A DNA stretch of 21,121 nt, taken from IMG/VR virus record IMGVR_UViG_2690316318_000022. One strand, 5' to 3'. Made by a program: the position numbers and the translations under genes. Below, one piece after another: positions 7,829 to 17,640 of this stretch (positions within the stretch are counted from its first letter, which is position 1; each line of letters starts with the position of its first letter). Under the pieces are notes generated by a model, which saw nothing but the letters and a program-made list of their open reading frames with translations, had not been told where the DNA came from and searched no databases. Source of the DNA: a virus. Its lineage: Duplodnaviria > Heunggongvirae > Uroviricota > Caudoviricetes.

Positions 7829-7895
7829 TACAGGTTTACTTGTAATTAACCCACAGGCACTCTTGTTTGTCAAATACAGATAGCTCTGTAATTAT
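7829..7895. promoter_or_regulatory. Rightward operator (OR)-like region with divergent promoters for cro (minus) and cI (plus)
   Basis: Two 16-bp sites of form TACAnn-N4-nnTGTA: TACAGGTTTACTTGTA (7829-7844) and TACAGATAGCTCTGTA (7875-7890). Minus-strand -35 TTGACA (7868-7873) with a -10-like GTTAAT; plus-strand -35 TTGTCA (7867-7872) with a -10-like AATTAT (7890-7895). Confidence 0.6.
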
Positions 7896-7917
7896 CAATG
7901 ACAGAAAAGGAGTCGAT

Positions 7918-8547
7918 ATGAATCTTGCTATCCGGGCCAAAAAGCGCAGAACAGAACTCAATTTAACTCAGGTCGAAGTTGCTAAACGAGCGGGCATAAG
8001 CCAGCAGTCAATAGAAGCTATAGAGAACGGCAAAACGCTAAAACCACGTAACCTTCTTGCTTTAGCATCGGCTCTGGAGTGTGATCCTAAGTGGTTACTA
8101 CTCGGGGGTGATGTTGTCACGAATTTCAACTACGGAGCCCGAAGGGTGCCTGTTCTAAGCTATGTACAAGCCGGAGCTTTCACAAGCACTGAACAACTTC
8201 ATGAAGGCGGTGATTTCGAATACATCCTGACAACAACGGAATTATCAGAGCGTTCGTTTGCTCTCCGTATACGCGGAGATTCGATGGAGCCAGAATTTAA
8301 AGAGGGTGACATCGTTATAATTGACACTGACGTATACCCTACCCCTGGCGAATTTGTTGCGGCATGCAATGGTAGCCATGAAGCAACGTTCAAAAAGTAC
8401 CGCCCGGTAGGGATTGGCGCTAAAGGTGAGGAAGATTTTGAACTTGTTCCCTTAAACAGCGATTACCCTATTTGCCGCTCCTGGGAAAAACCTATCAAGA
8501 TTATTGGAACAATGGTGGAGCATCGCATATTCCGCCGAAAAAGATAA
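7918..8547 (+). CDS. cI: CI-like repressor: N-terminal HTH plus C-terminal S24 (LexA-like) autopeptidase domain
   Basis: HTH (LNLTQVEVAKRAGISQQSIEAIENG), candidate Ala-Gly cleavage site in VQAGAF, Ser nucleophile motif GDSMEP and a downstream Lys. ATG at 7918 has a strong AAGGAG SD; the track ORF begins upstream at 7867. Confidence 0.85.
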   Translation: MNLAIRAKKRRTELNLTQVEVAKRAGISQQSIEAIENGKTLKPRNLLALASALECDPKWLLLGGDVVTNFNYGARRVPVLSYVQAGAFTSTEQLHEGGDFEYILTTTELSERSFALRIRGDSMEPEFKEGDIVIIDTDVYPTPGEFVAACNGSHEATFKKYRPVGIGAKGEEDFELVPLNSDYPICRSWEKPIKIIGTMVEHRIFRRKR

Positions 8548-8921: not shown

Positions 8922-9491
8922 TTACTGGTTGTAAGGATCGTAATCCGTGATTGCCTTCCCCGGATTTTCATCTTCAGAAGGCAGTCGGGCCTCTAAAGCA
9001 TTTCGGTTGAACAGATAGGAAGCCCTACAGTACGAACAAACCATATTAACGGCTCGCCCAAGGCCTGGCTTAGTAACCAGTCCTTCCGCTTGCAATATAG
9101 ATTTTCTCTTTTGCTCGTAGCAATTGGGACAAATATAAACCGGAGATTGGTCAGCATCTGCAGAAAGCTTGCTGCGATAGACCAGAGTCCCCCGCATAGG
9201 CTGGTAAAGTTCATAGCTCGCCGCTTCAGCGGCCCAGTTCTCTTGCTTTACTTTCTCATTTTCCAGTTCAACAATTTTCTCCTTAGCCGCAATCAGCAGC
9301 TCCTGAAGCGACATTTGCTGCATCTGAACATCCATTAGCTTATCGAGTAAGATGTGCGTCTTCTCTTTAACTGCATAGTCTACAGTCAGATTCTGAATCT
9401 CTCTTGCTGCTCCAACCGCGCTTTTAATTGCTCCTCCCACGCCGGATAACGATTCAGTTATCCGGGAAAGAATTCCTTTTTCTTCAGACAT
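8922..9491 (-). CDS. Hypothetical protein (189 aa): predicted coiled-coil N-terminal region plus C-terminal CxxC...CxxC zinc ribbon
   Basis: ATG at 9491 with a GAGAGAGA SD-like. Heptad-like charged region (LQELLIAAKEKIVELENEKVKQENW), then CPNC...(about 30 aa)...CSYC. Antisense to the PL-driven operon, adjacent to the immunity region. Confidence 0.6.
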   Translation of the reverse strand: MSEEKGILSRITESLSGVGGAIKSAVGAAREIQNLTVDYAVKEKTHILLDKLMDVQMQQMSLQELLIAAKEKIVELENEKVKQENWAAEAASYELYQPMRGTLVYRSKLSADADQSPVYICPNCYEQKRKSILQAEGLVTKPGLGRAVNMVCSYCRASYLFNRNALEARLPSEDENPGKAITDYDPYNQ

Positions 9492-10766: not shown

Positions 10767-12068
10767 ATGCCAGACGTTCATGCACAACTTTCTCCATCAT
10801 CAGCGCATCGATGGATGCGCTGCCCAGGAAGTCTGGCGCTGGAGGCCACACAACCGGATAAAGAAACAACTTTTGCAATCGAGGGCACTGCAGCGCACGC
10901 GCTTGCTGAAAAAGTTCTACGAAACAGGCAAAGCCACCCGGAACACTACGCCGGATGCAATGTTTCTATGTTTCTCGGCTCATACCCCCTTCGCGAAAAT
11001 CCTGATGATACATCTGGCCCACAGGTGGATGATGAAATGGTCGAAGCCGTTGGCCGGTATGTTGATACGGTCTGGACTCTTGCACAGAATAATGAACTAT
11101 TGGTTGAACAACGTGTTGATTTTTCACATATAACGGGGGTGGAAGAATCTTTCGGAACTGCCGACGGCATAATCATCGCTGGTAACGAATTACAAATCCA
11201 CGACCTGAAATATGGCAAAGGCGTCCGCATTGATGCAGAACAAAATGAGCAACTACAACTGTATGCTCTGGGTGCGCTCGAACAATTCAGCATGCTGTAT
11301 GACTTTGAGACTGTAAGATTATTTATTCACCAGCCAAGGCTCAACCACGTTTCAGAATGGTCGTTAACCGTGCAGGAACTTCAGTCTTTCGGTAAACGAG
11401 CACAGGAGGCCGCAACCAGTGCGATCCTTGTTCTCAATATTGCTGAATGCGAAGGCATTGAGACACTACCGCTGGAAAACTTCATACCTGGAGAAAAACA
11501 GTGCCGCTTCTGTAAAGCAAAAGCTATTTGCACTGCCCAGAAAATGCAGCATTTACAAACAGCGGCCAGCGACTTTGAAGATCTGACAAAGCCTGTCAGC
11601 GAAATAATCACCAATGCCAGCGCACGTGTACCTCTGTTAACCATTGAGCAGCTTGCGGAGATCTATAGCCAGGCCGACTTTATTGAGTCCTGGCTAAAGG
11701 CAGTACGGGACCGGGTTCACAATGAACTCAATGCCGGACATCCGGTACCGGGGTTTAAACTGGTAACAGGAAAACAAGGTAACCGGGCCTGGAGTGATGA
11801 AGAGGCAGCTCGCGCACTTCTGAAGGACCAGTTCAGGTACAAAACTGAAGAAGTATTCGACTTTAAACTTATTAGTCCCACAAAAGCCGAAAAACTTATC
11901 AAAAAGGCCAGTCCACGCCGTTGGTCAAAAGTCGAGGCACTGATAACACGAGCTGATGGTAAACCAACCGTCGTTCCCGAGTCAGACCCACGCCCCGCAC
12001 TCAATATCAACCCTGTAAATGATTTCGACGACGTATCCGACGATACGCTAACCGCAGACCTCATCTGA
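10767..12068 (+). CDS. DUF2800-family PD-(D/E)xK nuclease (Cas4/RecB-like, Cys cluster)
   Basis: N-terminal [15 protein letters not shown] signature, nuclease core HDLKYGKG with QLQLY (QxxxY), and C-terminal [10 protein letters not shown] cysteine triad; GGAGGG SD. Family assignment from memory. Confidence 0.7.
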
Positions 12069-12083
12069 TTTAAGGAAATACCC

Positions 12084-12632
12084 ATGAAACTGAAGCTGAA
12101 CAATGTTCGTCTGGCCTTCCCGTCTCTGTTTGAAGCTAAAACTGTAAACGGCGAAGGCGATCCGCGTTTCTCCGCAGTATTTTTAATGTCTCCCAAACAC
12201 CCACAACTGGAAGAAATCCGTAAAGCTATGAAGCAGGTAGCGAAGGAAAAATGGGGAGAGAAGTGGGAGCCCATTTATAACCAGCTGGAGAAAAAACTCA
12301 ATCTGTGCCTGCATGATGGTGATGAAAAAGCAGAGTATGAAGGCTTCCCCGGCAATTTCTTCCTGAATGCTGCTAACAAAGCGCGCCCAGCTGTTCTTGA
12401 TCGCGATCGTTCGCCACTAATTCAGGCTGATGGACGTCCCTATGCAGGGTGCTATGTAAACGCCGTTATCGATATCTGGGCACAGGACAATAATTTCGGT
12501 AAACGCATTAATGCCTCACTCGGCGGAGTCCAGTTCCTGCGAGACGGCGATGCATTCGCTGGCGGCGGAGTGGCAAGCGCTGACGATTTCGACGATATCA
12601 GCGAAGGTGCTGATGCTGAAGCACTAATTTAA
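12084..12632 (+). CDS. DUF2815-family protein (putative ssDNA-binding partner of DUF2800)
   Basis: N-terminal NVRLAFPSLFE motif and acidic C-terminal tail (DDFDDISEGADAEALI); conserved pairing with DUF2800 and a family A polymerase. Confidence 0.65.
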   Translation: MKLKLNNVRLAFPSLFEAKTVNGEGDPRFSAVFLMSPKHPQLEEIRKAMKQVAKEKWGEKWEPIYNQLEKKLNLCLHDGDEKAEYEGFPGNFFLNAANKARPAVLDRDRSPLIQADGRPYAGCYVNAVIDIWAQDNNFGKRINASLGGVQFLRDGDAFAGGGVASADDFDDISEGADAEALI

Positions 12633-12683
12633 AAATATTCATCCCCCAGCTACGTGCTGGGGTATCTCATGAGGGAAAGTATA

Positions 12684-13325
12684 ATGTCACAGCCCGTATT
12701 AACTAATCACCTTAAAACTCAAATCATCAATAACGCACTTGAGAAAGCGGGTATTCCCAAACGTAAATCAGCACTACGAGCTGCTCGTGTTGAATGGGCC
12801 GAACGTGTTCGGCTTGCAGCTATCGGGGGCGTAGAGAAAGAAGCTGAAATATTAAAAAATATAAAAAAGATTGAATCCATGGTCACAAAAATCCCTAATT
12901 CATTAAAAACCAATAGTTCTTTAATTCGAAAAGATTGCTGCATATATCTCAATCTGGCTGGAGCCAGAGCAAACATTTATTTCAATGGCAACTACAGAGG
13001 TTATGAATCAGGAGCCCCCGAGCATATTAATAAAATAGCACCTGCAGAATTTACTCTACTTGGCGAAGATCCTCTGGTAACGGAGTTTTATAGCTTTGAT
13101 GCTCTCTACACACAAATTAAAAGTGATGAAACCGAAATCATACAGAACGTCAGCGCGGCTCTAAATAAAGTTCGGACAGTAAAACGATTACTGGATGTAT
13201 GGCCCGAAGCTAAAGAACTGCTTCCAACAGACGCACCGCCAGTCCCTTTAGCACCAGCAGTACATCGAGAGACATTAAATGAAATGATAGGCCTTCCTAC
13301 CAATACAGTGTCTGATACTCAATAA
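12684..13325 (+). CDS. Hypothetical protein (213 aa from ATG 12684; the track ORF starts at GTG 12654)
   Basis: SD GAGGGA 7 nt upstream of the ATG at 12684. Moderately AT-rich. 3' end overlaps the convergent gene by 7 nt. Confidence 0.5.
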   Translation: MSQPVLTNHLKTQIINNALEKAGIPKRKSALRAARVEWAERVRLAAIGGVEKEAEILKNIKKIESMVTKIPNSLKTNSSLIRKDCCIYLNLAGARANIYFNGNYRGYESGAPEHINKIAPAEFTLLGEDPLVTEFYSFDALYTQIKSDETEIIQNVSAALNKVRTVKRLLDVWPEAKELLPTDAPPVPLAPAVHRETLNEMIGLPTNTVSDTQ

Positions 13326-14008
13326 CAAGGGGGATGCTTATTATATGATTTTGAACATTTTACAATCTCGTTAAGAGGCGTGAAATCAAAATCTCTGAAT
13401 AACACATCAGGATACTTCGCTCTTGCTTTATCCAGCAAACCAGTTAAAGTATTTTTTGTGTTACCCAACATTGTATTAACCGCCACTACATGTCTAATTT
13501 CTGGAGGTTTATCTATACCACCAGAAATTGCTTCATTAAGAACCGACGCCAGTGGGGTTTGTCCCTTACTTGTTGAATCCCACAGCGTCATTAACAGACG
13601 AGCTGCGTCTATAAATAGCTTTTTGTCAGCATTTGGCTTGACAGTAATACCGGAACTACCTGAGCCAGAACCGGAACGTTCTATTGCTGCACTGGTATCC
13701 GATTTCATAGGATTAAATAACGGAAGCTCTGTACAACCGATACGCCGAATGAAATCCTTTGCAACATCTCTACCACAGAAAAAAGCCCCTGTACAATTTT
13801 CATCAGAGCGTTTTTTAAATGAAAAACAATAGTACTGATCGGTTAACGGATAACCGGAATAACTGGTTTTAGTTTGTCCAGTAATAAGTTTCAGGTGTGC
13901 AACAGGCTGAATAATAAAATCCCGAACTATCGCATCTTTTATGTCGTTACCACGGTGACAATAATATTCAGGTAATCCATTAGGCTGTCTCTTATTACCC
14001 ACAGTCAT
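13319..14008 (-). CDS. Hypothetical two-domain protein (229 aa): Cys/His-rich N-terminal region, SGSGSGSSG linker, C-terminal domain
   Basis: Strong SD AAGGAGA 7 nt upstream of the ATG at 14008. AT-rich by eye (about one third GC in sampled stretches). Antisense to the surrounding replication operon. Confidence 0.6.
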   Translation of the reverse strand: MTVGNKRQPNGLPEYYCHRGNDIKDAIVRDFIIQPVAHLKLITGQTKTSYSGYPLTDQYYCFSFKKRSDENCTGAFFCGRDVAKDFIRRIGCTELPLFNPMKSDTSAAIERSGSGSGSSGITVKPNADKKLFIDAARLLMTLWDSTSKGQTPLASVLNEAISGGIDKPPEIRHVVAVNTMLGNTKNTLTGLLDKARAKYPDVLFRDFDFTPLNEIVKCSKSYNKHPPCY

Positions 14009-14069
14009 TAGTTGTCTCCTTTAATTCATGATATCTAGCATTTAACCATATACCATATGAGGATATTTT

Positions 14070-16133
14070 ATGTCCAATATACTATGGGGCGACCTGGAAA
14101 CCTATTGTGACATTCCGATCAACAACGGTACCCATGCGTATGCCGAAGGCGTTGAAGTGATGCTTTTCGCATGGGCTATCAACGACGGGCCAGTAAACGT
14201 GTGGGATACCACTGCCGGTGGTGGTATTCCACACGGCTTATACGAAGCAATCGCAGACCCTGAAACCCTGCTTTATTTCCATAACTCTCACTTCGACCGC
14301 ACCGTTCTACGTTATGCAATGCCGCGACTGGCACCGCCAGTCGAACGTTGGCGCGACACGATGGTGCAGGCGCTGGCGCACGGTCTCCCGGGGTCTCTGG
14401 GAGAACTCTGCGAAATACTAGGCGTCCCGCAAGACAAAGCGAAGGACAAAGAAGGTAAAGCGCTGATCCAGCTGTTCTGTAAGCCACGCCCGAAAAACAG
14501 CAAACTGCGTCGGGCCACCAGCAAAACCCACCCAGAAGAATGGCGGCGCTTTGTTGCTTACGCCGGACTGGATATCGAGGCAATGCGCGAAGTCTGTAAA
14601 CGTCTGCCGAAGTGGAATTATCAAGGGACAGAGCTGGCGCTCTGGCATCGTGATCAGCAGATCAACGACCGGGGCGTCTGCATGGACATGCAACTCGCGC
14701 GCGCTGCGATCGAAGCGGTAGACCAGGAGCAAAAGCGCCTGGCAAAGCGTACACAGGAAATGACTGATGGCGAAGTGCAGGCAGCCACACAACGAGACGC
14801 GTTGATTAAGCACATTGTTGAATCCTACGGTGTGGAGCTACCAGACATGCAACGCAGTACTCTGGAACGTCGTATTGCCGACCCCGATTTACCATCTGCC
14901 GTGAAAGAACTGCTGGCTATCCGACTGCAGGCCAGTACTACCAGCACCAGTAAATACAAGGCACTGATGAAAGGCGTAAGCCACGACGGGCGCTTACGCG
15001 GTACGCTACAGTTCTGCGGGGCGTCACGTACCGGTCGTTGGGCCGGACGGCTATTCCAGCCCCAGAATCTTCCCCGCCCTTCACTAAAACAGGAACAAAT
15101 AGACGAAGGCATCGAAGCACTGAAAGCCGGATGTGCAGACCTGCTGTTTGACAATATCATGGAACTAACCAGTTCAGCGTTACGTGGCTGCATTATCGCG
15201 CCAACAGGCAAAAAACTGGTGGTAAGTGACTTGTCGAACATTGAAGGCCGTATGCTGGCATGGCTGGCAGGAGAAGAATGGAAACTGAATGCATTCAGAG
15301 AGTACGACGCCGGAACGGGTCCGGACTTATATAAACTGGCGTATGCAAAAGCTTTCGATATTGCACCAGATGATGTTGATAAACACATGCGTCAGATCGG
15401 TAAAGTCATGGAACTCGGTCTGGGTTATGGTGGTGGTGTGTCGGCCTTCATCACTTTTGCACTGGTTTACGGTCTCGATCTCGACGAGCTGGCAAACGCT
15501 GCACTGCCAAACATTCCCCGCGATGTTATCCGCGAGGCGAAAAGCTGGTACGGCGAATCGGTTAAACGTAAGTCAACCTACGGCCTTTCTGAACGGGTAT
15601 TTATCGCCTGCGACTCACTTAAACGTCTCTGGCGCCGGGCGCATCCCGCGACCTGTGATTTCTGGTACGAACTGGAGCGCACCGTCCGCACTGCAATCGC
15701 CACACCGCAAAAAACATTGTATTGCGGTTATCTTAAAATCCGCCGCGATGGCGCGTGGCTGCGCATACAGCTACCATCCGGACGCGCTGTATGCTACCCG
15801 TCTCCGGTTATCGAAAAAGGGAATATCACCTACATGGGTGTTAACTCTTATTCGCGTAAATGGCAACGACTCAAAACCTACGGCGGAAAGCTGGTGGAGA
15901 ACGTCACCCAGGCGGCCGCCCGCGACGTTCTGGCCGGAAACATGCCGCTTATCGAAGATGCCGGTTACAGCATTGTGCTGACGGTACACGACGAGGTGAT
16001 CACCGAATCACCTGACACAGAAGATTTCAACGATAAAGCGCTTTCCGCGCTTCTCTCCACTAACCCCGAATGGGCGCCCGATATCCCACTGAACGCTGGC
16101 GGTTTTGAGGCGTACCACTACCGTAAGGATTAA
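14070..16133 (+). CDS. Family A DNA polymerase (Pol I-like) with 3'-5' exonuclease domain
   Basis: Exo I motif GDLETY (DxE); polymerase motif A DLSNIEGR; motif [17 protein letters not shown]; motif C VHDEV. 687 aa. Confidence 0.9.
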
Positions 16134-16138
16134 CTCCT

Positions 16139-16354
16139 ATGTCATTTAAATACCGGGATAATCCACTTTATTACAGGGCTGCAAGGGAAGCTTTGCGACT
16201 TGAACAATCCGGCGAATATGACCGGGCAGCGGAGGTCTGGGCAAAAGCCAACCGCGAATCACATCACGAACTGAATCAGGAATGGAGTGAACGCAGATCT
16301 GATTTTTGCCTGATGCAGAACATGCGTGAAAAGCGTAAGGCGGTCGAAGAATGA
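16139..16354 (+). CDS. Hypothetical small protein (71 aa)
   Basis: Track ORF with AAGGA SD, translationally coupled to neighbours. Confidence 0.45.
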   Translation: MSFKYRDNPLYYRAAREALRLEQSGEYDRAAEVWAKANRESHHELNQEWSERRSDFCLMQNMREKRKAVEE

Positions 16355-16650
16355 TCGTTTACGTTGCCGGGCCGATGAGCGGTTACGAGCAATTTAACCG
16401 CCCGGCCTTTCATTCCGCAGCAAAGAGGCTAACGGACAAGGGATATGTTGTGCTTAACCCCGCAACTTTACCCAATGGTTTGACACAGGCTCAGTACATG
16501 GACATCTGCCTCGCAATGCTTCGCTGTGCCGATACGATTTATATGCTCAAAGAGTGGGAGTACTCTGCCGGCGCACGTGCAGAAAACGCGTTGGCAGAGA
16601 AACTGGAATTGAATGTGCTTTTTGAAGAGTGGGATTCAGATGGCCTATGA
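16351..16650 (+). CDS. DUF4406-family protein (nucleoside 2-deoxyribosyltransferase-like fold)
   Basis: N-terminal VYVAGPMSGYEQFNRPAF...VVLNPA pattern characteristic of DUF4406, from memory. Confidence 0.6.
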   Translation: MIVYVAGPMSGYEQFNRPAFHSAAKRLTDKGYVVLNPATLPNGLTQAQYMDICLAMLRCADTIYMLKEWEYSAGARAENALAEKLELNVLFEEWDSDGL

Positions 16651-16914: not shown

Positions 16915-17640
16915 TCATTCTGAGCGATTTTTCTTGAGCTTAGAAGCTTTTAAAAAACATACTTTTAGTTGTTGTGTTTCTTTTATGCTTACAGGAATTA
17001 ATTTCCCCTCAATTCCTTCGACACTCATAAATTCAGAGCTATTTTTTTTACAGTTCCCCAAGACAAATTTTCCGTTATAGCTTTCGATAATATAAGCATC
17101 ATATTTTTTAGAATAAAAAAGAGGCTCATCTGATAAGTATGCCCATGCCCACCCAAGGACTGAAGGAAGCATTGCTATGGATATAAAAAGCATAACCCCA
17201 TGAGTTTTGTTTTTTATTCTAAATTCATTCCTAATAAAAACAGATACTGCCCTGACACTGATAGGGCTAATAAATCCCAATAGTATTGCTTGGGTAGCCA
17301 CATCCCTTATGGATTTTTCATAAAGGTATGAGCTACCGCCATATAAATACATTGTCCAGTATGAAAGCAAAGAGGCCAAAATGAAGAAAAATAAATACAC
17401 CCACCATGGAATATTCTTCTCTTCAGTATCAATATGCAGCAAAGCGACTAAGGTGCACAAAAGTCCTAATGCAATAACAGAAAATTTAACTATTTCCTCA
17501 ATCCCAATAGAAATAAAACTTACAGGGAATCCATAAAATGAGCAGTACCCTTTGTAAAAAGAAAAAGCCATAAAATAAAGGGCGGCCAAGAGAACCGTTG
17601 TAATTGATAAATCTTTTACATTCATGATGTTCAAGAGCAC
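16915..17640 (-). CDS. Hypothetical multi-pass membrane protein (241 aa), AT-rich antisense insert
   Basis: AAAGGTG SD-like before the ATG at 17640. About four or five hydrophobic segments in the first 170 aa and a charged C-terminal tail. About one third GC in sampled stretches, against roughly 55% in the flanks. Convergent with VRR-NUC and divergent from SNF2. Confidence 0.6.
   Translation of the reverse strand: MLLNIMNVKDLSITTVLLAALYFMAFSFYKGYCSFYGFPVSFISIGIEEIVKFSVIALGLLCTLVALLHIDTEEKNIPWWVYLFFFILASLLSYWTMYLYGGSSYLYEKSIRDVATQAILLGFISPISVRAVSVFIRNEFRIKNKTHGVMLFISIAMLPSVLGWAWAYLSDEPLFYSKKYDAYIIESYNGKFVLGNCKKNSSEFMSVEGIEGKLIPVSIKETQQLKVCFLKASKLKKNRSE

Follow-up and report, generated by a model that had tools for sequence, protein, structure and literature searches.

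The segment between DUF2815 and polA in this phage genome is a real, swappable cargo slot, a hotspot. In one family of temperate phages of Enterobacterales, it lies between a DUF2815/Enc34-type ssDNA-binding gene and a family-A DNA polymerase gene (polA). The window, which is the whole 21,121-nt stretch of viral DNA analysed here (IMG/VR record IMGVR_UViG_2690316318_000022), carries one allele of this recombinational slot at 12633-14069, holding two probably independent accessory genes, of which the minus-strand UCP028583 gene would likely serve in defence. The region is best read as a hotspot for morons that here includes a candidate defence gene not described before. The Nmad5 family of the plus-strand gene is already known; UCP028583 is an uncharacterised stand-alone gene that recurs in anti-phage defence hotspots. 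This copy of the E. coli prophage is integrated beside yfhL. The allele contains the following features.

12633..12683, plus strand: intergenic region between DUF2815 and nmad5 at the left edge of the variable slot, with a 7-bp GC-rich hairpin (12644-12662) and the nmad5 SD GAGGGA
12684..13325, plus strand: nmad5, 213 aa, Nmad5 family, in the same direction as the early replication operon
13285..13302, minus strand: terminator-like hairpin, a 7-pair stem followed by TTTCATTTAA, a pattern match only, from a consensus scan
13319..14008, minus strand: UCP028583 gene, 229 aa, PF27729, the moron proper
14009..14069, no strand assigned: divergent intergenic region of 61 bp, with the UCP028583 SD GGAGA (14019 to 14015) and the polA SD GAGGA (14059-14063), as read from the sequence
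14047..14076, minus strand: candidate promoter, TGGACA (14076 to 14071), 18 nt, then the extended -10-like TGGTATATG (14055 to 14047)

An earlier note on this DNA described two convergent ORFs with a tail-to-tail overlap of 7 nt. These coordinates are confirmed, and RefSeq annotates the same two ORFs (12684..13325 and 13319..14008) in a 99.6% identical prophage. The deviant composition that the note wanted computed is also found: GC3 is 0.28-0.29 in the island (0.294 in nmad5 and 0.283 in the UCP028583 gene) against 0.45-0.56 in the flanking genes (DUF2800, DUF2815, PolA, VRR-NUC, SNF2). AT-richness had been ascribed to the minus-strand gene, correctly (GC 0.391), and extends to the plus-strand gene (GC 0.407). 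The operon had been called otherwise co-directional, which is contradicted by a second AT-rich minus-strand ORF in the operon region (16915..17640). The UCP028583 gene does have its own SD, GGAGA, located 6 nt upstream of its ATG, and the terminator-like hairpin lies within the nmad5 3' end, 17 nt past the stop of the UCP028583 gene.

At the left edge of the slot, the stop codon of DUF2815 (12630-12632) is the last shared point, and homology among slot variants stops directly after it. The hairpin CCCCAGC-TACGT-GCTGGGG, proposed as the left boundary, is exact at 12644-12662 and sits at the left end of the variable segment; with its context it has a folding energy of -17.1 kcal/mol (z = -2.4 versus shuffles), and the hairpin is identical in the related prophage L001. 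A GC-rich hairpin follows DUF2815 in every slot variant, with a sequence that differs from variant to variant. The hairpin in this allele has no T-run and was rejected as an intrinsic terminator. Scans of the window for Rfam families and tRNAs found nothing.

Comparison with related prophages gave the result predicted for an insert that is exchanged horizontally at a variable hotspot. The module is carried by 159 related E. coli prophages, and the slot between DUF2815 and polA holds at least six alternative AT-rich cargoes. The nmad5 and UCP028583 pair is present in 27 of the 159, and a 78%-identical nmad5 allele with an 89-aa membrane protein in 32. The remaining E. coli alleles consist of a single multi-TM protein (199 or 209 aa), antirepressor/BRO-N genes, or a 493-aa SIR2 protein that matches the PADLOC candidate PDC-S25 (E 5e-157); the GC of these alternative cargoes is 0.29-0.40. 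The 89-, 199- and 209-aa cargoes were considered as diverged UCP028583 relatives and rejected (hhalign probability <1%). Between the window and L001, which carries the 89-aa cargo, dS is 1.1 in nmad5 and 0.058 in polA. In another relative (L020), the island proteins are ~70-73% identical to those of the window, whereas DUF2815, PolA, SNF2 and integrase are 92-96% identical. The diverged nmad5/UCP028583 pair of L020 (70% and 73% aa identity) retains the tail-to-tail overlap. Two marks of a moron are seen in the UCP028583 gene, the deviant GC3 (0.283 versus 0.46-0.56 in the flanks) and replacement among collinear relatives.

The gpA-gpQ (old/tin) hotspot of P2 (PMC9122126) likewise holds AT-rich cargo between conserved phage genes, independently transcribed there and putatively so here. 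Both sites have many alternative cargoes, here including the SIR2/PDC-S25 candidate, and the P2 hotspot (gpA-portal) itself houses one UCP028583 relative. The present slot, however, lies between DUF2815 and polA in an early replication operon of a different phage type. Unlike the defence morons of the P2 hotspot, the UCP028583 gene is without a known domain, and its anti-phage role is a candidate one only.

The plus-strand gene, which the earlier note did not recognise, is clearly a member of the Nmad5 family, a widespread early phage accessory gene. Its product matches Nmad5 (PF18757) over the full length (E 1.8e-54, 185.3 bits versus a cut-off of 27, profile 3-206 of 206) as well as phrog_1965 (E 1.2e-57), and RefSeq annotates the gene as Nmad5. 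Lambdoid phages have nmad5 in their pL and nin accessory regions, and for M6-like phages Nmad5 is listed with the genes of a modification cassette that is described as preceding polA (PMC9476957). This thymidine-hypermodification cassette (Nmad5, aGPT-Pplase1/2, kinase, radical SAM and PLP enzymes) shares with the window an Nmad5-family gene before polA, but the window and the whole annotated prophage are without its modification enzymes. Genes for aGPT-Pplase, nucleotide kinase, radical SAM, PLP enzyme or pyrimidine hydroxymethylase are not annotated in the near-identical prophage, and the neighbours in the nmad5 region of the window are DUF2815, the 229-aa gene and PolA, not a hypermodification pathway. 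Here, as in the pL and nin regions of lambdoid phages, Nmad5 is an orphan. The protein is helical and apparently non-enzymatic, and its most likely targets are DNA or proteins of replication and host sensing. Since nmad5 is read together with the early replication genes, its product would be made in lytic growth. The only genetics comes from a Dhillonvirus, in which a point mutation in a gene that its authors named nmad5 escapes the Tmn defence, whereas its deletion does not (PMC11846954).

The minus-strand gene encodes a soluble, basic protein (pI 9.1) of 229 aa with two domains. Here the non-recognition in the earlier note stands: the protein belongs to an uncharacterised family. The gene has the anatomy of a moron. 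It is a full-length member of PF27729 (PIRSF "uncharacterised conserved protein UCP028583"), a family that carries no functional annotation; membership comes from the precomputed assignments of a 99%-identical cluster representative (P0001) and of every homologue found. The family comprises ~421 clusters at 50% identity in Proteobacteria, Firmicutes and others. The SGSGSGSSG linker is as the note described it and corresponds to a low-confidence segment (105-121) that separates two confidently modelled domains. The N-terminal 104 residues contain 5 Cys and 2 His. Among 126 relatives, the candidate metal-ligand columns show Cys in 86% at the column aligned to window residue 18, H38 in 72% and C78 in 76%. 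At position 50, 47% have Cys and 35% Asp, the clade of the window has Tyr, and position 85 is His or Asp. One subgroup has an extra Cys at 51 beside position 50 and C78 moved to 82. The N-terminal alpha-beta-beta-beta-alpha domain was considered as a degenerate PD-(D/E)XK nuclease and rejected, as its third strand is without (D/E)xK and the Asp that opens the second strand varies among relatives. In one relative, the protein is fused to DUF5710, a small domain without assigned function that is found on DNA-processing proteins of mobile elements.

Nothing significant was returned for the 229-aa protein in a Pfam copy without the PF27729 model, PHROGs, NCBIfam or PADLOC. The sole match in PADLOC-DB v2.0.0 was IetA (E 0.034, 53 residues), and nine UCP028583 relatives had no match to PADLOC models at E <= 1. 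VapB was the sole match among toxin and antitoxin families and was sub-threshold (E 0.04; 14.5 bits versus a cut-off of 60). A profile search of PDB sequences gave a single chance match (E 0.29), and Foldseek gave no fold match in BFVD at E <= 0.001. The literature searched had no mention of UCP028583, PF27729, PIRSF028583, IPR016913 or WP_000215799. Superinfection exclusion, abortive infection and counter-defence were the roles suggested earlier. Because neither protein matches a known defence, abortive-infection or counter-defence family, the defence role is proposed from genomic context.

This context was read by eye at ~25 loci, a sample that illustrates defence surroundings and is not a statistical enrichment. 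The places where UCP028583 is found but nmad5 is not include prophages, P2-like phages, plasmids, R-M loci, and chromosomal islands or sites. One setting is a type I R-M locus (L005/L006), where UCP028583 comes third, preceded by a HigB-like gene and an Xre-peptidase gene, and the Xre-peptidase of L005 matches PD-Lambda-2_B (E 1.5e-38). The gene stands behind a Phd/YefM-ParE pair in L048 and behind an MTase-S fusion in another relative. A further relative is flanked by genes for PDC-S53, HEC-07-like and GajB-like helicase proteins. The gene adjoins SIR2 in Dickeya and on a Hafnia plasmid, the latter with ToxN/AbiQ close by. Some chromosomal contexts (L004, L007, L019) have AraC-family, LysR-family or metabolic genes and no defence neighbours. 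In L017, L024 and L033, UCP028583 lies directly before polA, with a DUF2303 gene replacing nmad5.

Traces of the slot persist beside the chromosomal copies: polA has left 18-53 nt of its 5' end, and nmad5 up to ~108 nt of its 3' end. The copies in Dickeya, Enterobacter and Morganella carry both relics and are therefore derived from this slot. Because such stumps flank them, the chromosomal copies must have been retained or transplanted alone with the upstream block. The gene is under purifying selection (dN/dS 0.06-0.16), chromosomal copies included. The relics are an unusually clean trace of a moron that has outlived or left its phage.

The upstream block is the putative promoter of the UCP028583 gene. 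A TTGGACA-N18-TGnTATATGGTT block is kept upstream of UCP028583 genes in both prophage and chromosomal copies, and L001 has it conserved before its unrelated 89-aa cargo gene as well; the conserved part upstream of the UCP028583 gene can be written as TGGACA-N18-TGnTATATG. In the window, the candidate (14047..14076) overlaps the polA start codon. It is weak by the sigma-70 consensus and was not called by a generic sigma-70 scan. With the opposite strand, its own SD, a candidate promoter over the polA start and a terminator-like hairpin, UCP028583 would be a classical moron. It may be expressed from the repressed prophage, with early lytic transcription running antisense through the gene. The two genes are presumably expressed at different times because they are on opposite strands. 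The UCP028583 protein most likely protects the lysogen against other phages or mobile elements. As no catalytic motif or enzyme fold is detectable, we infer that it is a binding protein, either a sensor or an inhibitor, and not an enzyme.

A more specific version of this proposal is tentative. UCP028583 could be a protein, not described before, that acts on its own against phages or mobile elements, has a fold absent from PDB and BFVD, and is encoded by a self-contained promoter-gene-terminator cassette that moves from the slot upstream of polA into chromosomes, plasmids and P2 hotspots. The same protein might also serve as a sensor or specificity module behind TA effectors, at the position of PD-lambda-2 C.

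The last point leads to an alternative in which the 229-aa protein is an accessory or specificity part that needs a separate effector such as a TA pair or SIR2, and is either inactive in the window or an orphan with a partner in the host. The third-gene position in L005/L006, after a HigB-like gene and a PD-Lambda-2_B-matching Xre-peptidase gene, the Phd/YefM-ParE pair in L048, and SIR2 neighbours in two independent elements are consistent with this alternative. In PD-lambda-2 (HigB-like A, Xre-peptidase B, accessory C), the third gene is dispensable for toxin neutralisation and needed for defence, and C is described as related to a P4 phage antitoxin, i.e. a different family (PMC9519451). UCP028583 takes this third place in one distant locus, but it has no match to PD-Lambda-2_C or to any other PADLOC model; only the distant L005 has a B homologue, and the window has neither an A nor a B gene and hence no such operon. 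A minority of the observed contexts show TA or SIR2 arrangements, the SIR2 genes next to UCP028583 run convergently and belong to separate transcription units, and the genes immediately upstream at other loci are mutually unrelated. A conserved partner gene of ~266-268 aa upstream of UCP028583 had been considered and was rejected, as the three candidates were unrelated by BLASTP. The Enterobacterales clade is consistently solitary, and dependence on an effector partner is unlikely. Nor are the window genes a type II toxin-antitoxin pair, which consists of two small co-directional, co-transcribed genes, whereas these are convergent.

It is similarly improbable that the 229-aa protein serves the phage itself, as a counter-defence protein or as a regulator of replication or polA whose place at the polA start reflects regulatory coupling. 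Such a role would suit a gene that always abuts the polA start in three diverged prophage lineages and whose conserved upstream block reaches over the SD and ATG of polA; the basic protein and the DUF5710 fusion of one relative would suit it as well. However, ~130 of the 159 related E. coli prophages are without the gene and have unrelated cargo there, so polA is independent of UCP028583, and copies far from any polA are under purifying selection. Counter-defence genes are usually transcribed with, not against, early lytic operons. Furthermore, tblastn of the window protein and of a distant relative (P0017) found no match in 50,697 deposited phage genomes.

The earlier note treated the two genes as one system, and a single functional unit, for example a mark and reader of DNA or a toxin and its immunity protein, is the least probable reading, since each gene occurs many times without the other: nmad5 alone in 32 E. 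coli prophages and 154 phage records, and UCP028583 alone in P2-like phages, plasmids, R-M loci and chromosomal sites, beside DUF2303 in apparently intact prophage modules, and under purifying selection next to a non-coding nmad5 stump. All 27 E. coli copies of the 229-aa gene adjoin the same nmad5 allele, the diverged pair of L020 preserves the overlap, nmad5 3'-end relics show an old adjacency, and the unusual GC3 is common to both genes. Yet opposite strands exclude co-transcription, and recombination in the conserved flanking genes accounts for the physical linkage. Within the E. coli lineage, given the 27/27 adjacency, some functional tie could still exist.

Two independent accessory genes in an exchangeable slot leave current concepts unchanged, and the UCP028583 gene is a candidate defence gene. 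If it protects lysogens, a compact single-gene system with a new fold would join the defence catalogue, and ~421 clusters would receive their first functional label. The slot between DUF2815 and polA, together with two neighbouring slots, is a place for mining more cargo in this prophage type. These two further slots lie nearby, one after polA and one between VRR-NUC and SNF2, and the one after polA holds TIR-domain genes in some relatives.

The AT-rich island between the DUF2815 gene and polA (12633-14069) is probably a moron slot whose two passengers are independent of each other: an orphan Nmad5 gene and a UCP028583 (PF27729) gene. The earlier note had proposed an undescribed two-gene system at this position, but each of the two genes proved separable from the other. 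The island sits within the plus-strand early replication operon of an E. coli prophage. Strain 2011C-4315 carries a copy of this prophage with 99.6% identity, integrated beside yfhL and shoB.

Layout of the early operon and its inserts
Ahead of DUF2800, plus strand: gene for a 300-aa protein
10767..12068, plus strand: DUF2800, PD-(D/E)XK nuclease
12084..12632, plus strand: DUF2815, Enc34-type ssDNA-binding protein
12684..13325, plus strand: nmad5
13319..14008, minus strand: UCP028583 gene
14070..16133, plus strand: family-A DNA polymerase (polA)
After the polymerase gene, in this order: ANR-family regulator, DUF4406 and VRR-NUC genes
16915..17640, minus strand, between VRR-NUC and SNF2: 241-aa membrane protein
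End of the listing: SNF2 helicase, then integrase

The tail-to-tail pair of ORFs with its 7-nt overlap was found as originally described. Windowed GC drops from about 0.50 to 0.38-0.41 over 12600-14200, in agreement with the AT-richness judged by eye, and GC3 is 0.294 for nmad5 and 0.283 for the UCP028583 gene versus 0.45-0.56 for the neighbours. The minus-strand gene does have its own Shine-Dalgarno sequence, GGAGA, six nt ahead of the ATG. The description of the operon as otherwise co-directional did not hold, since a second AT-rich ORF lies on the minus strand at 16915..17640. This second moron has a GC of 0.343 and encodes a multi-TM protein with no matches in Pfam, PHROG, PADLOC or NCBIfam.

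The replication module is present in 159 of 5,426 complete E. coli genomes, and comparison among these bore out the prediction of a variable hotspot. Homology among the slot variants breaks off directly behind the DUF2815 stop codon; it returns at the polA ATG or slightly ahead of it. The GC of all cargo is 0.29-0.40.

Cargo of the slot in E. coli
nmad5 and UCP028583 gene: 27 genomes
78%-identical nmad5 allele and gene for an 89-aa two-TM protein: 32 genomes
Minus-strand gene for one multi-TM protein, 199 or 209 aa long
Antirepressor or BRO-N genes
493-aa SIR2 protein (locus L010), matching PADLOC candidate PDC-S25 (E 5e-157)

In a comparison of the window with the related locus L001, nmad5 has a dS of 1.1 and polA one of 0.058. 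In locus L020, both island proteins are approximately 70-73% identical to those of the window, and DUF2815, PolA, SNF2 and the integrase are 92-96% identical. Judged by this divergence, the island alleles are far older than their flanks. The island is therefore swapped as a block via recombination in the conserved flanking genes. The E. coli copies of UCP028583 are all at least 99% identical and all adjoin nmad5 (27 genomes); block exchange accounts for this strict linkage, and no functional tie is needed.

As had been noted, a hairpin marks the left boundary of the variable segment. It was located at 12644-12662, and the folding energy with its surroundings is -17.1 kcal/mol (z = -2.4). All slot variants have a GC-rich hairpin immediately behind the DUF2815 stop codon (window 12633-12662; loci L008-L011, L020 and L033), and its sequence differs from variant to variant. 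A T-run follows it in L020 and L033; the window has none. That the hairpin recurs across the variants suggests that it has a function behind DUF2815, for instance as a partial terminator or an RNA-end structure, and is not an insertion scar. Rfam gave no match for it.

The plus-strand protein, which had gone unrecognised, matches PF18757 (Nmad5) end to end (E 1.8e-54) and phrog_1965 (E 1.2e-57), and RefSeq already annotates the gene as Nmad5. Its relatives are present in 154 deposited phage genomes at varying genomic positions. In lambdoid phages, they occupy classic accessory positions: in mEp235 the pL operon, where N/Nun and cIII flank the gene, and in SPN3UB the nin region. In M6-like phages, Nmad5 is counted among the genes of a thymidine-hypermodification cassette located upstream of polA (PMC9476957). 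No enzymes of this cassette were found in the prophage, as annotated in the near-identical copy. Nmad5 is a known but biochemically uncharacterised family and stands alone in this prophage. The only genetic result found comes from a Dhillonvirus gene named nmad5 by its authors, a possible homologue of the one in the window. A Lys-to-Glu change in it leads to escape from Tmn defence; deletion of that gene gives no escape, and the gene is toxic when cloned (PMC11846954).

The minus-strand protein had no significant match in local Pfam, PHROGs, NCBIfam or PADLOC. In precomputed annotation, its 99%-identical cluster and every homologue found carry PF27729, a family of uncharacterised proteins. UCP028583 is a catalogued, uncharacterised family without a recognisable fold. 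A word-indexed search of 5.8 billion proteins returned only 17 clusters. Among 1.84 billion representatives, a profile search picked up 421 (E <= 0.001), nearly all of 195-235 aa with one single architecture. Named members are all "hypothetical protein" (Aeromonas, Alcaligenes, Thermodesulfatator, Enterobacterales). Plasmid-borne relatives occur in Staphylococcus, Vibrio, Hafnia, Pectobacterium and Enterobacter, and none was found in 50,697 deposited phage genomes. The 229-aa protein is soluble and basic (pI 9.1). Its AF2 model (pLDDT 82.8, pTM 0.80) predicts an alpha/beta domain at residues 14-100 and, at 127-217, a helical one. The Ser/Gly run was correctly seen as a linker; it is disordered (residues 105-121) and separates these two confidently predicted domains. 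Conserved positions are mainly aromatic, and the polar invariants among closer relatives (alignment A4) are Q45, S49 and N178. Positions 18, 38, 50, 78 and 85 form a semi-conserved Cys/His/Asp set, in which the Cys is shifted in one subgroup and position 50 is Tyr in the window clade. This set hints at a putative metal site.

Outside E. coli, the gene is found without nmad5. In Pantoea-type prophages, it occupies the same position, immediately ahead of polA and in divergent orientation to it, with a DUF2303 (YfdQ-like) gene in place of nmad5 as the co-directional neighbour. In the "chromosomal" copies of Dickeya, Enterobacter, Morganella, Providencia and locus L019, homology to the prophage island extends past the gene. 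Upstream, 18-53 nt of the polA 5' end are kept (L003 7907-8746, L004 7907-8716, L018 6917-7698 and L019 3557-4466). The Dickeya relic reads P-S-N-L-L-W-D-E-L-E-T on the reverse strand, compared with the corresponding 11-residue stretch of PolA. Downstream, up to approximately 108 nt from the 3' end of nmad5 remain as a stump in L003, L004 and L019. The chromosomal copies therefore descend from the nmad5, UCP028583, polA arrangement of the prophage slot. Their dN/dS is 0.06-0.16 where dS is unsaturated, indicating purifying selection, and the UCP028583 gene evidently works alone.

Also retained upstream of these copies is a block of TGGACA, 18 nt and then TGnTATATGGTT, which is found in L001 upstream of the unrelated 89-aa cargo gene as well. 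We infer a candidate promoter for minus-strand cargo that overlaps the polA Shine-Dalgarno sequence and ATG; a generic promoter scan did not call this block. A pattern scan found a terminator-like hairpin behind the UCP028583 stop codon.

Other contexts of the family are diverse. In P2-like phages, a relative lies between gpA/Ogr and the portal gene, a site that Rousset et al. defined as the cos-proximal hotspot for defence genes (PMC9122126). In a type I R-M locus (L005 3660-5741), UCP028583 is the third co-directional gene behind a HigB-like gene and an Xre-peptidase gene whose product matches PD-Lambda-2_B (E 1.5e-38). The third gene of PD-lambda-2 is required for defence and dispensable for toxin neutralisation (PMC9519451). 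UCP028583 did not match the PD-Lambda-2_C model, so the parallel is one of position only. In another locus (L048 1455-2588), it is third behind a Phd/YefM-ParE pair, type II TA-like. Elsewhere, it follows an MTase-S fusion or lies amid PDC-S53, HEC-07-like and GajB-like helicase genes, and in Firmicutes-like elements it adjoins integrases. A SIR2-family gene is convergent to it on a Dickeya chromosome (L003 9399-12569) and on a Hafnia plasmid (L057 4914-6443), where a ToxN/AbiQ gene is nearby. SIR2 accompanies UCP028583 in these two unrelated elements and, as PDC-S25, is one of the other occupants of the slot in E. coli (L010); such recurrent proximity could be chance inside defence islands. 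Immediate neighbours are otherwise unrelated among themselves. From these contexts, a role in phage or mobile-element conflict is the best-supported guess, and defence specifically is a tentative reading that we rate somewhat below even. The gene is a reasonable candidate for cloning and phage challenge, though one among many such.

Other positions of the prophage also vary. In L002, the VRR-NUC/SNF2 slot contains a cytosine methyltransferase gene and a 106-aa gene; L001 has three hypothetical genes there, all on the minus strand, and L020 a gene of 237 aa. The position after polA is a third variable slot of the same operon. Right behind polA, L009 (3695-3940) and L011 (5288-5521) have a TIR-domain protein gene; in the window, the ANR-family regulator gene takes this place. 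The DUF4406 gene at window 16351-16650 (named after its L001 counterpart) gives way to a DUF7446 gene in L002, a prophage that is 99% identical elsewhere. A minus-strand gene (8922-9491), opposite in strand to the CI-like repressor gene (7867..8547) and located shortly downstream of it, encodes a protein of 189 aa. This protein contains two CxxC pairs (CPNC...CSYC) and has no NCBIfam match. L001 has a gene of the same size, annotated as hypothetical, at the corresponding position.
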